NCBI GenBank assembly: GCA_027491435.1
Contig: JAOZFG010000005.1
Span: forward strand, 1-41,394
Reading direction: 5' to 3'
DNA length: 41,394 nucleotides
Source: Thermoproteota archaeon
GTDB lineage: Archaea > Korarchaeota > Korarchaeia > Korarchaeales > Korarchaeaceae
The translations under genes were made by a program, and so were the position numbers. Positions 37,830 to 41,394 of this stretch are shown here, piece after piece. Numbering within the stretch: position 1 is the stretch's first letter; every line of letters begins with the position of its first letter. Under the pieces are notes generated by a model, which made no database searches, was not told the origin of the DNA, and was given only the letters and a program-made list of their open reading frames with translations.

Positions 37830-38543
37830 ATGGATCACCAATTGATAGGCATTTCCCCCGAGAGGGAGGTTATCTACAACAAAGAGAGGTGGAGAATACT
37901 CTCAGTTAAGAGGGACAGAGCTAGGGCATTACTGGAGCATTTGGCCTCCCACGGGATAATAGGCTTCATTTACGGTAGCGTGGCCAGGGGAGACGTTAGG
38001 GAAAAGAGCGACGTAGACGTTATTGTACTAAACCCTCCAACCCCCCTATCTCTGATAGATGAGGTGCTATCGCGATTCGAGCAACCTGTGAGGAGAGAGA
38101 TAGTACAGGCCACTCCCAGGAGCACGCCCAAGTATTACCTTCACCTCAGTCAAGAGACAGTAGTGTCCCTGCCAGTGGGCAGGCTCGGCGAAAGGGAATC
38201 TGACTTTTACAGGTTCGGAGGTATGCTTGACCTAGAAGGTGTGTTGGAAGGTAAGAGGGTCCCAGGAGTCAACAAAGAGCTCAGGCTAATTTACCCTACT
38301 GAAAGAGGTCATCTCGAGTACTCGGTGCCCGGGAACGAGGAGCTAGTGGCCAAGGTGCTTAAGGTGGCTAAGGGAATAGTTGAGGAGAGGGTGAGGGTTC
38401 TCACCAAGAGGAGGATTGTTGGCACAACTGGCCTTTACGTGGACTACGTGCTTCAGATCGACGAGTGCGTAGAGGACGCCATAAGGAGGATAGCCTACAT
38501 GAAAAAGGGGTTCAGGGAAAAAGTCAAGGAGCTTATAAGCTAG
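37830..38543 (+). CDS. Predicted nucleotidyltransferase (PolBeta superfamily, conserved archaeal family)
   Basis: YGSVARGDV..KSDVD, QATP, FYRFGG, RVPGVNK, ERVRVL. Confidence 0.85.
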   Translation: MDHQLIGISPEREVIYNKERWRILSVKRDRARALLEHLASHGIIGFIYGSVARGDVREKSDVDVIVLNPPTPLSLIDEVLSRFEQPVRREIVQATPRSTPKYYLHLSQETVVSLPVGRLGERESDFYRFGGMLDLEGVLEGKRVPGVNKELRLIYPTERGHLEYSVPGNEELVAKVLKVAKGIVEERVRVLTKRRIVGTTGLYVDYVLQIDECVEDAIRRIAYMKKGFREKVKELIS

Positions 38544-39625
38544 AGCTCCAAGCTGTACCTCAGTATTGCAGCTATTCCCCCTATGGACTCGAGCTTCTCC
38601 CCGGGCTCGCTCCTCGAATCCACTATGTGAAATTCAGACCTGGTTTTCTCAGCCATCTCAAGTATGGAGAGGATCCTATCCCTGGTCTCCTGATTGAAAA
38701 GCAAGGAACTGCAGACAAGCACCTTCTCAGCGGCTCCCATGTTGACCGCCTGCTCGACCTCGTTAAGCCCGTAGGTGACCAGCTTGGAACCCTTAGCTAA
38801 CAGCTCGAAGACCTCATCTACCAGCTTCATGTGTTTAGTCAGGTCCAGGTCCTTGACAGCCTTGTCAACCTCTCCCCTTTTGACCAGCTCAACAACGCCG
38901 CTCATGGTGGCGTTTGAGGTTGTGGTCACCCTAATGCTCTTGGTGAGTTCTGAGTGCCTCTCCTGGACGTACTTGTAGAACTTGTCTTTCATGAAGCCAG
39001 GCCCCCCCACTATGACCACTTGAGCCCCAGACCTTCCCTTCAGGTCCTCTAGCGTCTTTGCTAGGTCGGAGAAGTACCTCCTCTCCTCACCCTCCCTGTC
39101 ACTCCTCTCCGCCCTCTTTGATGAGAGGCCTGACCTTATGTACATGACCTCGGAGAGGTTGTAATTGTCCAGCTCAGCGACGGTTGCGCCCTCGTCGTCC
39201 ATGGAGACCAGTATCGCCTTGGCCTTTGTTGAGGACTCCACAGCCCTCCTTATTATCTCAAGGTGGGACCTCCTCCAGTTCTTCTTCCAGATCTTGACGG
39301 TGGAGCCTACGTCCACGTTAAGGGTGTGGTGTTGTCCCTGTATGCCGAACTTCTCAGGCCCTATCCTAACCACCCCGGTCAACCTCAGCCTAGAGGAGTA
39401 CTCGTCCAGCTTGACCTTCTCGACTTCGACTGTCAGAGTCATGGGCAGCCTTTCTCCGCTGTCAGCTCTGCCCCCTTCCCTCTTCACCCTCCTGGTGGTC
39501 CTCATGGTTACCCAGTCTCCAGGCTCGATTATAGAGAGGAGCCAGTAGAGGTCCTCCAGCCTCTCAACTTTTAGGGCTATGAACCCCTTCTTGACGTCTT
39601 CCTCAATTACCCTCGTGGGGTTCAC
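38540..39625 (-). CDS. pelA: Pelota/Dom34 ribosome-rescue factor
   Basis: EDLYWL, RLRLTG, GQHHTL, GGPGFMK, YGLNEV, GGIAAILRY. Confidence 0.95.
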   Translation of the reverse strand: MNPTRVIEEDVKKGFIALKVERLEDLYWLLSIIEPGDWVTMRTTRRVKREGGRADSGERLPMTLTVEVEKVKLDEYSSRLRLTGVVRIGPEKFGIQGQHHTLNVDVGSTVKIWKKNWRRSHLEIIRRAVESSTKAKAILVSMDDEGATVAELDNYNLSEVMYIRSGLSSKRAERSDREGEERRYFSDLAKTLEDLKGRSGAQVVIVGGPGFMKDKFYKYVQERHSELTKSIRVTTTSNATMSGVVELVKRGEVDKAVKDLDLTKHMKLVDEVFELLAKGSKLVTYGLNEVEQAVNMGAAEKVLVCSSLLFNQETRDRILSILEMAEKTRSEFHIVDSRSEPGEKLESIGGIAAILRYSLEL

Positions 39626-40803
39626 CCCACAGTCAGGACTGTAAGGCCTACAGGCTTCTTGACCACCTCGTGTTCCTTATTCGCTATTATCACCTTGACG
39701 CCTATCTCGTAAGCCTTCTCAACTATCCTCTGGGTGACTATCTTATCATAGACTATGTACCTCACCTGACCCTTCAGCTTGTCCAACACGTCGTAAAGTT
39801 CCCTAGTAGGCACCTCCTTAACGAGCTTTAGGTTCTCGTCCAACAGAAGGACTTTATCAGTGCCCGCCACTTTGAGGTAGAGTTCCCTCATCTGCTCTGG
39901 TATCCTATCCAAGTTCCTGGGGACCTTCACCTCCGGAAGGACCTGAATCCTCTCCTCCTGGTGCTTCTTGGGCGAATAGGAGATTCCCATGGATTTCCTA
40001 ACTTCATCGGCTGGTACGGCTGAGGATAGGGCCTTCCTTATCTCCTTGGCAGTGAGCTCCTCCACTACCTTGCCCTCTGGGGCCCTAGCAACGTAGTCTA
40101 TGTCGGTCTGCTCCAACAAGGTTCTAAGCACCAGCTCTCCTCCCCTATCGCCATCCACGAAGGCCGTTGCGTCTTTCATGGAAATTAGCTTGACCAACGT
40201 CTTCGGAACTTTTTCCACGGCCCCTCCCATGGCTATGACGTTGTTGTAACCGTACTTGAGGAGATTTAAGACGTCAGCCCTTCCTTCAACAACTATTATC
40301 TCGTCAGCCTCCTCAACGCCGCTACCAGCTGGAAGTCCCTCCTCTCCATAGAGAACTAGGTTCATCTTGGCGCTCTCCCTCTGGACGAACTCTAGCAACT
40401 TCCTGTAGGTGTCCTCCTTCTCTGCAGACCACTTCCTTAGAATCTCAACGGCCCTTCTAGCTATAGCGTTCCTCCTCTCGTCCCTATCGTCAAGTATCCT
40501 TATCAGCCTGAAGGTGGCCGTGTAAGGACCTACCCTGTCTACAGTTTCCATAGCTGCCGCCAGCAAAGCGGTCCTCACCTTGTCAAGCCCTGAGTAGAGC
40601 TCTACAACCCCTCTAGACCTTTCGGACTCCCTCTTTAGCCTTATGTTAATCCTTCCAATCTTTCCAGTGCGCTGCAGCTCTTTGAGCTCAAGTTCAGGTC
40701 CTAGTAGACCCTCAAGCTGGCCGAAAATAGCTCCTATCACGTCGCTAGGTTCCACAACTCCGTTAACGATTACCTCGAATCTAGCTATATACTTGTGGCT
40801 CAT
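39622..40803 (-). CDS. dnaG: Archaeal DnaG (TOPRIM; exosome-associated)
   Basis: DVIGAIFGQ.EGLLG, VVEGRADV, FVDGDRGG, ARAP; start ATG 40803 or 40827. Confidence 0.95.
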   Translation of the reverse strand: MSHKYIARFEVIVNGVVEPSDVIGAIFGQLEGLLGPELELKELQRTGKIGRINIRLKRESERSRGVVELYSGLDKVRTALLAAAMETVDRVGPYTATFRLIRILDDRDERRNAIARRAVEILRKWSAEKEDTYRKLLEFVQRESAKMNLVLYGEEGLPAGSGVEEADEIIVVEGRADVLNLLKYGYNNVIAMGGAVEKVPKTLVKLISMKDATAFVDGDRGGELVLRTLLEQTDIDYVARAPEGKVVEELTAKEIRKALSSAVPADEVRKSMGISYSPKKHQEERIQVLPEVKVPRNLDRIPEQMRELYLKVAGTDKVLLLDENLKLVKEVPTRELYDVLDKLKGQVRYIVYDKIVTQRIVEKAYEIGVKVIIANKEHEVVKKPVGLTVLTVG

Positions 40804-40849
40804 CCCATCTTTTCTAGAGTAATCCATACGTTAATCATCCTCCCGGTTG

Positions 40850-40937
40850 AATTGTGCGCCCGCTAACTAATCCCCGCGGGTCATAGGTCAGCCCACGCTT
40901 TCCTCCCTACCCGCGAGGTCATGCAGTAGCGGGCGCT
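40850..40937 (-). ncRNA. Probable single-hairpin H/ACA guide sRNA with K-turn
   Basis: Lower stem GCGCCCGCUA/UAGCGGGCGC, internal loop CUGCAUGA / AUUAGU, upper stem CCUCGCGGGU/ACCCGCGGGG, K-turn-like UAGG-GAG-GA...UGA-CCUA, ACA directly 3' of the stem, TATA about 25 nt upstream. Confidence 0.7.
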
Positions 40938-40956
40938 GGGATACGACGCATGACGC

Positions 40957-40972
40957 AAATATAAACTTCCTC
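40957..40972 (-). promoter_or_regulatory. BRE/TATA promoter of the candidate sRNA (and possibly dnaG)
   Basis: GAGGAAGTTTATATTT on the minus strand. Confidence 0.6.
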
Positions 40973-41190
40973 TAAGGTTTAGTAGGTAAATAATAGTCAG
41001 TAGGGGTTTTGATGATTTACCTTCACTTCACCTCAACGGTCCTTCTACATTCGTTTGAGGCAGAGGTTGTTGAAGCAGAATGTATGGTCTGTGGACTCAA
41101 CTGCCGTCTGTACTAATTTAAATTCTAGCAATAGCTCCCTTCACCCCCTATAATGCCCCATAGATCGTAGCTGAGACCTCTGATGAAATT

Positions 41191-41228
41191 TTAGTTAGTG
41201 ATAAGTGAGTTTACTCATCACTAATTAA
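41191..41228. repeat. 38-bp imperfect palindrome
   Basis: TTAGTTAGTGATAAGTGAG / TTTACTCATCACTAATTAA; core TTAGTGAT...ATCACTAA is perfect. Confidence 0.7.
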
Positions 41229-41394
41229 GTATTATGTTAATCTCGAGCAATTCCTTTAATCTATCGCCCGGTGCTGCCAACTTGAGCTTGATTAGGCAGA
41301 GAGCCGTTGACGCTGCGGAATTAAAGAGAACCTTAAACAGTTAGAAAGCGGGTCCCTGCCACATAGTTACACCTATTCTCACCCTTGGACCCCT

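Follow-up and report, generated by a model that had tools for sequence, protein, structure and literature searches.

The closest described relatives of the element treated here are the classic single-hairpin box H/ACA small RNAs (sRNAs) of archaea, represented by Pab91 and Pf9 of Pyrococcus, sR115 and sR435 of Sulfolobus islandicus, and sR201 and sR202 of Pyrobaculum (PMC2377435, PMC11077068, PMC4652768). As set out in PMC2377435, such RNAs have a lower stem of at least 7 base pairs (bp), internal-loop strands of 5–11 nucleotides (nt), an ANA box, and 14–15 nt between ANA and target; PMC7075261 gives this distance as 15 ± 1 and counts 9–10 layers from the base of the upper stem, P2, to the distal G.A pair. 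This 'GA stem' is described elsewhere as 8–11 layers long, with 10 in all crystal structures (PMC4652768), and the kink-turn (K-turn) of an H/ACA RNA is described with its bulged strand on the 3' side and a U before the GA (PMC2377435, PMC4652768, PMC7075261). Here we describe E1, an 84-nt hairpin at positions 40936–40853 on the minus strand of contig JAOZFG010000005.1 (assembly GCA_027491435.1), from a Thermoproteota archaeon of the family Korarchaeaceae. The whole 41,394-nt stretch analysed is called the window, the genome it comes from is G000, and a complete relative that serves repeatedly for comparison is G007; other G numbers are further relatives.

An initial annotation, made from the letters alone, had read this hairpin as an H/ACA-type pseudouridylation guide with a K-turn, directly upstream of dnaG. 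Our analysis confirmed that E1 is a real structured non-coding RNA, beyond chance, and it probably encodes a box H/ACA RNA of the classic type, with one hairpin. The wider statement that E1 is the RNA of an H/ACA-class ribonucleoprotein (RNP) is a little safer, and we regard it as likely.

Structure and conservation of E1

The minimum free energy of the 101-nt stretch that holds E1 was −52.2 kcal/mol (z = −4.87), and none of 200 shuffled versions was as stable. Read along the minus strand, the hairpin is made up of the following parts.

40936–40927, minus strand: lower stem P1, 5' strand, pairing with 40865–40856 in a perfect 10-bp helix
40926–40919, minus strand: internal loop, 5' strand, CUGCAUGA, 8 nt, conserved only in its last four bases, AUGA
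40918–40909, minus strand: upper stem P2, 5' strand, pairing with 40881–40872 and including one G.U pair
40908–40881, minus strand: apical module of two opposed K-turn-like motifs with a common 2-bp helix
40905–40903, minus strand: bulge GAG of K-turn A, on the 5' strand, with G40902.A40888 and A40901.G40889
40899–40897 with 40892–40890, minus strand: 3-bp apical stem with a GUGG loop, closing the apical module
40885–40883, minus strand: bulge of K-turn B, on the 3' strand and with a U before GA, with G40882.A40908 and A40881.U40909
40880–40872, minus strand: P2, 3' strand, as delimited in the covariation alignment
40871–40866, minus strand: internal loop, 3' strand, AUUAGU, 6 nt, consensus A-Y-U-A-G-U
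40865–40856, minus strand: P1, 3' strand, as delimited in the covariation alignment
40855–40853, minus strand: ACA box, adjoining P1 and 16 nt from the top of the internal loop

The pieces from which the initial annotation had been assembled (stem, loops, ACA box, promoter and a missing terminator) were all found on the minus strand at their coordinates. Covariation was assessed at 26 pairs in an alignment of 27 sequences, 26 of them distinct. Across the distinct sequences 95.1% of cells were paired, and compensatory changes on both sides were seen in 14 of the 26 pairs, compared with 6.7 ± 1.3 in shuffles, none of which reached 14 in 500 trials; sliding the 3' partners of the alignment left at most 3 compensatory pairs. 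Such changes affected 6 of the 10 pairs of P1, where 99.6% of cells were paired, and likewise 6 of the 10 pairs of P2. RNAalifold independently recovered both stems, the open internal loop and the apical stem, and the internal loop was also open in the centroid fold.

The hairpin is conserved throughout the class of its source. BLAST gave a strong match (E ≤ 5.5e-11) in 27 of 36 family genomes, G000 counted, and most matches were bounded exactly by the first P1 base and the last A of ACA (query positions 11–93). With a covariance model, 38 of 40 class genomes each yielded a single copy, on the sense strand, and E1 was detected in all 23 good-quality class genomes and all seven genera; in a phylum-level set it was found in 30 of 32, both misses belonging to the one other family. 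The genomes in these counts are kin, and the counts do not equal independent events.

Base-by-base conservation, counted over 34 E1 sequences, was concentrated in particular parts of the internal loop. In the AUGA of the 5' loop strand, A was kept in 29, U in 32, G in 34 and A in 34, with the three preceding bases varying freely, and the 8-nt 5' guide that had been proposed thus shrinks to these four bases. The 3' loop strand read A in 34, U in 21 or C in 13, U in 32, A in 31, G in 34 and U in 32. The ACA box was present in 31 sequences and replaced by UCA in 3, all of one genus, its C and final A being invariant. Since the internal loop is conserved as strongly as the protein-binding motifs, it must do something.

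Neither Rfam at its gathering score nor a search at E ≤ 10 returned a match at E1, and the Rfam scan that the initial annotation had proposed therefore matched no known family. No open reading frame (ORF) of at least 40 amino acids (aa) lies over E1, or on either strand of 40828–41394, in agreement with its description as an unannotated non-coding RNA. The sole Rfam match obtained, WLE3 at 41041–41084 (E 3.6), was rejected as chance.

H/ACA geometry, a second hairpin and the target search

The spacings of E1 are those of an archaeal H/ACA RNA. Its lower stem has 10 bp in the window and 9–10 bp across lineages; an ACA box stands directly 3' of P1; the loop strands, of 8 and 6 nt, fall within the range of 5–11; and the distance from ACA to the top of the loop, for which 14–16 nt is the rule, is 16 nt in the window and 15–16 nt in all seven genera. 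The proposal of an archaeal H/ACA layout directly upstream of dnaG and pelota, with a TATA element of its own, is thus upheld. As for the machinery, G000 encodes a TruB_N/Cbf5-type protein (76.5 bits) and Nop10 (38 bits, above cut-off). Its Gar1 match was weak, at 23.3 bits and below cut-off, and a Sulfolobus control genome also fell below the cut-off for Gar1.

The K-turn called in the initial annotation was K-turn A, which is not where H/ACA RNPs have theirs: it stands about 17 layers above the base of P2, with a polarity opposite to that of H/ACA RNAs. K-turn B fills that place, with the position and polarity expected; P2 serves as its non-canonical helix. Counted in layers, its second G.A pair comes 11th in the source's own genus and 10th in four other genera. 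We take its polarity to be that of the solved H/ACA RNAs, as in the K-loop of Pf9.

Both motifs are strongly conserved. UGA (40883–40881) and GAGG (40905–40902) were invariant in all 34 sequences, as was A40888, and A40901, A40908 and G40889 were each kept in 32 of 34; at U40909, the 2n position of K-turn B, the column held U in 21, G in 10 and A in 3, facing the invariant A40881. The UAGG/CCUA pairing proposed earlier stood in its inner half, which forms the 2-bp helix common to the two K-turns: G40907–C40886 is invariant and G40906–C40887 covaries (GC 13, AU 8, GU 5). The outer half did not stand, A40908–U40885 pairing in just 11 of 26 distinct sequences and U40909 facing A40881 of UGA. In the most distant genus K-turn A is degenerate and the UGA of K-turn B is retained. 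The two motifs match the sequence rules for K-turns, a 3-nt bulge and then tandem G.A/A.G pairs between a Watson-Crick and a non-canonical helix, and may fold as such, although RNAalifold favours a different local pairing in the apical module, where the common helix is just 2 bp.

Other assignments were tried and rejected. Box C/D sRNAs have terminal C (RUGAUGA) and D (CUGA) boxes, internal C'/D' boxes and guides of 10–12 nt; E1 is no such RNA, as CUGA and RUGA occur solely inside its apical module, with no terminal boxes and no Rfam C/D match. For a bulge-helix-bulge splice motif the bulges stand in the mirror arrangement, and the internal loop has the wrong bases to be a K-turn.

A second hairpin with the same geometry, E2, lies in the leader of the ribosomal RNA (rRNA) operon. 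We scanned G000 with a descriptor consisting of a stem plus ANA, a loop, an upper stem, NA-2 bp-bulge-GA...GA-2 bp-bulge-GA and an apical stem. This search, an H/ACA finder scan of the kind the initial annotation had suggested, recovered E1 and E2 as the only full matches. E2 was located at the following places.

G000, contig C10, 107894–107979, plus strand: E2 of the source genome
L037, 1324–1410: E2 of G007
L036, 3084–3183, minus strand: E2 of G024
L164: E2 of G013
L168: E2 of G006

The lower stem of E2 measures 8 bp and its 3' loop strand 7 nt, which gives 15 nt to ACA, and the upper stem measures 9 bp. Both opposed GA/K-turn motifs are present, ACA is invariant in 10 of 10 sequences, and 9 of 23 predicted pairs show compensatory changes; three G-C pairs are predicted to close part of the internal loop. 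The loop and apical sequences are quite unlike those of E1. E2 follows a strong TATA element and lies about 90–150 nt upstream of 16S in G013, G007, G024 and G006, from which we conclude that it should be the 5' end of the rRNA operon transcript; in G000 the contig ends 486 nt downstream of E2. That two hairpins unrelated in sequence keep the same spacings, with an invariant ACA in E2, argues that the ACA and the geometry are functional, and it is mainly for this reason that we rank membership in the H/ACA class above the rival explanations considered below.

Several observations weigh against that membership. ACA gives way to UCA in three genomes. The 2b.2n pair of K-turn B in G000 is A.U, not A.G, and the GA stem has 11 layers in the source's own genus, not 10. 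A helix of only 2 bp between the two K-turns may prevent both from folding, and the near-invariance of the apical module and its GUGG loop is unexplained by H/ACA rules.

The target search weighs on the same side. The bipartite target rule applied in the initial annotation was correctly derived, and the conserved loop bases lead to an expected target of 5'-ACU(A/G)(A/G)U-U-N-UCAU. As G000 is without assembled 16S and 23S, the rRNAs of five relatives were scanned instead. In their 16S and 23S the full 6+8 guide paired at best at 7 of 14 positions, no site reached 6 of 10 for the conserved 6+4 core with gaps of 1–3, and four relaxed patterns gave zero matches; by a bipartite helix score against rRNA, 139, 196 and 126 of 200 shuffled loops were at least as good as E1. 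Among transfer RNAs (tRNAs), the 46 of G000 taken with flanks (39 from ARAGORN, 7 from Infernal) contained no target, and all 45 tRNA matches of G007 gave 8 of 10 pairs at best. A wobble core pattern run over the whole of G007 gave 13 matches against 12 for the control, none of the 13 lying in rRNA, tRNA, RNase P RNA or signal recognition particle (SRP) RNA, and a strict 12-mer gave 15 matches against 20 for the control in 21 genomes of the genus.

Further searches were no more productive. Melting 0–5 bp of P2 yielded nothing consistent in the 16S and 23S of the five relatives, the whole G013 rRNA operon with its spacers held no E1 target, and helix 69 of 23S, read by eye and also contained in the scanned 23S sequences, gave no match. 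Recurrent weak rRNA sites, namely 'GCYGGU-UC-CCGC', 'GCCGGU-UA-AUAU' and 'ACUAAG-UA-CCGUGAGG' in 23S and 'ACCGGU-UGA-UCCU' at the 16S 5' end, were rejected for mismatches beside the target U and a lack of co-variation. One further place in 23S attracts both hairpins: AUGACCCC of E1 (the last 4 loop and first 4 P2 bases) is perfectly complementary to the conserved GGGGUCAU (about 431–438 in G007), which is also matched by UGACCC of the E2 loop, and the 3' loop strand of E2 matches CGGGAA a few bases upstream. We rejected GGGGUCAU as a modification site: there is no adjacent conserved U, P2 would have to melt, and in 4.5 kb about 0.07 matches to an 8-mer are expected. Position 31 of the tRNAs with a CAU anticodon, where UCAU would be U33–U36, was rejected too, the one confirmed CAU tRNA of G007 being unfit for the 3' guide and no tRNA locus scoring higher than 8 of 10. 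A scan of the whole of G000 gave 36 sites scoring at least 9 of 14. A 12-bp match at C36:43027 falls in an intergenic stretch that is not conserved in 20 relatives; the fully paired site at C35:3491, part of a long ORF, is without a counterpart in G007.

E1 thus keeps the orphan status suggested for it, with no target in rRNA, tRNA, RNase P RNA, SRP RNA or two whole genomes, and its proposed function as a pseudouridylation guide gained no support, no canonical target having been found. For S. islandicus sR435, PMC11077068 describes eight targets bound through 8–11 bp with bulges and mismatches, assigned only by means of a pseudouridine map. Seen against this, the negative results for E1 count for less than they might seem to. 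That E1 actively guides pseudouridylation, through imperfect pairing or on an RNA not seen here, is a possibility that we hold with some doubt.

Some features of the scanned genomes were noted in passing. G000 is 99.5% complete by marker genes, yet contains no 16S or 23S; nor were CAU-anticodon tRNAs (initiator Met, elongator Met, Ile2) detected in it, all other expected anticodons having been found, and G007 does carry CAU tRNAs. The 23S match of G007 (L034) measures 3548 nt, compared with 2993–3060 nt in four relatives, which suggests an insertion or intron of about 500 nt. CRISPR arrays are present in G000 on contig C4 (about 10200 to the contig end) and contig C15 (about 37 onward). Their repeat contains TTTCAATCCCCTTTTCGGGATTC, and its part GGGGAUUGAAAG, in the sense of the CRISPR RNA, resembles GGGGAUUAGU of E1 in the same sense, which we took as coincidence.

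The loops of E2 likewise gave no rRNA target above shuffles, 29, 80 and 117 of 200 being at least as good. A non-modifying role would account for neither hairpin having a target. E1 and E2 might then belong to a distinct H/ACA sub-type of the class, built on opposed K-turns with a common 2-bp helix, standing at the very start of two long primary transcripts, those of the rRNA operon (E2) and of dnaG-pelota (E1), assembled during transcription and modifying nothing; as a whole we consider this unlikely. Such particles might be 5' caps that block exonucleases, chaperones of folding or processing, or a link in dosage between RNA-surveillance genes and the pool of L7Ae and Cbf5.

Genomic context and rival explanations

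E1 stands between promoter elements of its own, read from the sequence, and the genes for dnaG and pelota.

40972–40966, minus strand: GAGGAAG, resembling a B recognition element (BRE)
40965–40957, minus strand: TATA-like TTTATATTT, with the start of P1 about 20–21 nt downstream
40852–40828, minus strand: 25-nt spacer from ACA to dnaG, with a Shine-Dalgarno-like GGGAGG at 40844–40839
39622–40827, minus strand: dnaG, 401 aa, NCBIfam NF003108 (405 bits, cut-off 300), with a Toprim domain
38540–39625, minus strand: pelota, 361 aa, TIGR00111 (254 bits, cut-off 177.65)

The hairpin was found upstream of dnaG and on the same strand in 16 of 16 loci spanning all seven genera, and in 18 of 18 dnaG loci of the group among public records. 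It was absent from all of 61 other dnaG loci (Bathyarchaeia, Asgard and others), which also contained no convincing H/ACA-like hairpin ahead of dnaG. In nine representative loci from the seven genera, a TATA-like A/T octamer was placed 19–25 nt before P1 in seven and 37–39 nt before it in the other two. From this spacing, E1 should form the 5' end of a primary transcript, with initiation no more than a few nt from P1. Between E1 and the dnaG start codon (ATG, 40827) there is no stretch of at least four T, and the spacer has no T run and no space for a second promoter. In the source's own genus ACA is followed by GGGAGG after 8–11 nt. Given this short distance and the lack of a T run after ACA, dnaG most likely depends on the E1 promoter. 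The stop codon of dnaG and the start codon of pelota overlap by 4 nt (39622–39625), which fits translational coupling in one operon led by E1.

Beyond the promoter, window positions 40975–41394 are about 420 nt of AT-rich sequence up to the contig end, with no ORF of at least 40 aa and no Rfam match. They include an imperfect palindrome at about 41190–41225 (GTGATGAGTAAACTCACTTATCAC, minus strand) with a C-box-like look and no D boxes. In the genus of G038 and G039 (loci L151 and L152), the E1 hairpin as a whole is clamped by an outer helix of 10 bp without mismatch (GCGUCAGCCC / GGGCUGACGC); there ACA lies inside an internal loop, and the TATA element is about 39 nt upstream, not about 21.

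For E1 we directly observed structure, conservation, geometry and linkage to its neighbouring genes, and cbf5 and nop10 genes were seen to be present; to these we add protein binding, processing and any catalytic role, which we infer. E1 would be transcribed from its own BRE/TATA promoter as the very 5' end of a primary transcript continuing into dnaG and pelota. L7Ae could bind K-turn B during transcription, through the invariant UGA of the 3' strand, with a second copy possibly on the apical K-turn A, and Cbf5-Nop10-Gar1 would dock on both stems and on the ACA box. Trimming would probably release the bound particle from the messenger RNA (mRNA).

The strongest rival, also raised in the initial annotation, keeps the hairpin in the mRNA, as a 5' leader bound by L7Ae, and possibly also by Cbf5, that sets the translation or stability of the dnaG-pelota message. 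The linkage to dnaG in all 16 and all 18 loci speaks for it, as does the arrangement in the source's own genus, where ACA and a strong GGGAGG lie only 8–11 nt apart and neither a terminator nor a second promoter intervenes. Repression by L7Ae through K-turns in leaders is documented in PMC5539422 and PMC6298567, no target acting in trans was found for E1, and E2 likewise sits at the 5' end of a long transcript. A K-turn leader, however, needs no ACA (present in 31 of 34), no 15–16-nt spacing and no conserved 8 × 6 loop. The distance from E1 to dnaG, 25 nt in the window, rises to about 170 nt in another genus, and the hairpin therefore cannot work everywhere by masking the ribosome site directly. 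Leader K-turns are moreover described as unfolded without protein (PMC6298567), whereas the E1 hairpin is very stable. On balance we consider a leader acting in cis an unlikely explanation of E1.

Still less probable is a structured leader of another kind, such as a riboswitch-like ligand sensor or the site of some other protein, in which ACA and GA would be mere resemblances. Near-invariant loop bases, apical module and GUGG are what pockets for a ligand or protein typically show, and in H/ACA apical loops they are unusual; E1 lies just ahead of the ribosome-binding site, and it matched no Rfam family. Against this, every measurable H/ACA spacing rule is satisfied, E2 keeps the geometry and an invariant ACA despite quite different loop and apical sequences, no alternative terminator/anti-terminator fold is apparent downstream, and dnaG and pelota would seem to represent no pathway with an obvious small-molecule signal. 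A chance hairpin, or a terminator or attenuator of the neighbouring gene, can for practical purposes be dismissed: E1 is GC-rich and intergenic, but it is conserved class-wide with 14 compensatory pairs, has a z of −4.87, is not followed by a T run, and in G007 its upstream neighbour, the gene for ribosomal protein S17e, lies on the opposite strand and is transcribed the opposite way.

Comparison with known systems

Like the classic H/ACA sRNAs named at the outset, E1 has a lower stem followed by ACA, a large internal loop with 15–16 nt from ACA to its top, and an upper stem of 10–11 layers that ends in tandem G.A pairs with the bulge on the 3' side. It is a single hairpin, as in Crenarchaeota, and with E2 there are two such RNAs per genome, the number described for Sulfolobus and Pyrobaculum in PMC11077068. 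Unlike those RNAs, which have rRNA or tRNA targets, E1 has no target found; it also differs in carrying a second, opposed K-turn motif directly above the first together with a near-invariant apical loop, in its apparent position at the 5' end of an mRNA, and in matching no Rfam H/ACA family.

An RNA with no assigned target or function is also known in sR666 of S. islandicus, a K-turn hairpin described in PMC11077068 as co-purifying with Cbf5 and binding L7Ae and Cbf5-Nop10 in vitro. By that description, on which alone the comparison is made, sR666 is without single-stranded guide regions, whereas E1 has an open, conserved 8 × 6 loop and an ACA box. The atypical H/ACA-like RNAs of Pyrobaculum and Sulfolobus also combine a K-turn hairpin with flanking guide-like strands, and their targets are described as hard to predict, with pairings of 8–11 bp that include bulges and mismatches (PMC4652768, PMC11077068). 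They have neither a lower stem nor an ACA box, and E1 has both.

The K-turns bound by L7Ae in the leaders of l7ae and nop5-fibrillarin (PMC5539422, PMC6298567) also precede a Shine-Dalgarno sequence. E1 matches this position in its own genus, with 8–11 nt to GGGAGG, and not in the genus whose spacer runs to about 170 nt. As described there, those K-turns are short, unfolded without protein, and free of ACA and H/ACA spacing, unlike E1; a term search of PMC5539422 brought up no mention of dnaG.

For two K-turns in one hairpin, the closest parallel is helix P12 of euryarchaeal RNase P RNA, where a double K-turn binds two copies of L7Ae (PMC5499556). The two overlapping K-turns of P12, and the two motifs of E1, have a helix of a few bp in common. 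In P12 this helix is non-canonical for one K-turn and canonical for its neighbour, whereas in E1 it is canonical for both motifs, which face each other with their bulges on opposite strands. A designed two-K-turn unit (PMC5058347) is joined through non-canonical helices, again unlike E1. Two K-turns with a common canonical helix would be a new RNA building block.

A literature search, extending to neither subscription journals nor supplements, found nothing on H/ACA RNAs of Korarchaeota; the mentions of Korarchaeota in PMC3608112 concern rRNA operons and a phylogeny figure. E1 would be an undescribed, orphan H/ACA-class RNA with a possible guide role. Should it prove to be an ordinary guide with a loosely paired target, its value would lie in giving annotation a new RNA family. 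If the class has no classic H/ACA RNAs other than E1 and E2, these define the use that a deep archaeal branch makes of Cbf5.

Eukaryotes offer one further comparison, the H/ACA small nucleolar RNA snR30/U17, which acts in the processing of 18S rRNA without modifying it. Unlike snR30, E1 and E2 have loops whose complementarity to mature rRNA does not exceed the level of shuffles. Their conserved loop bases, a possible action by base-pairing or as chaperones, and the place of E2 in the pre-rRNA leader are reminiscent of it. Both hairpins are targetless, both mark the presumed 5' ends of RNA-handling transcripts and both carry face-to-face K-turn motifs, and together they raise the question of non-modifying roles for archaeal H/ACA particles of the kind that snR30 plays in eukaryotes.

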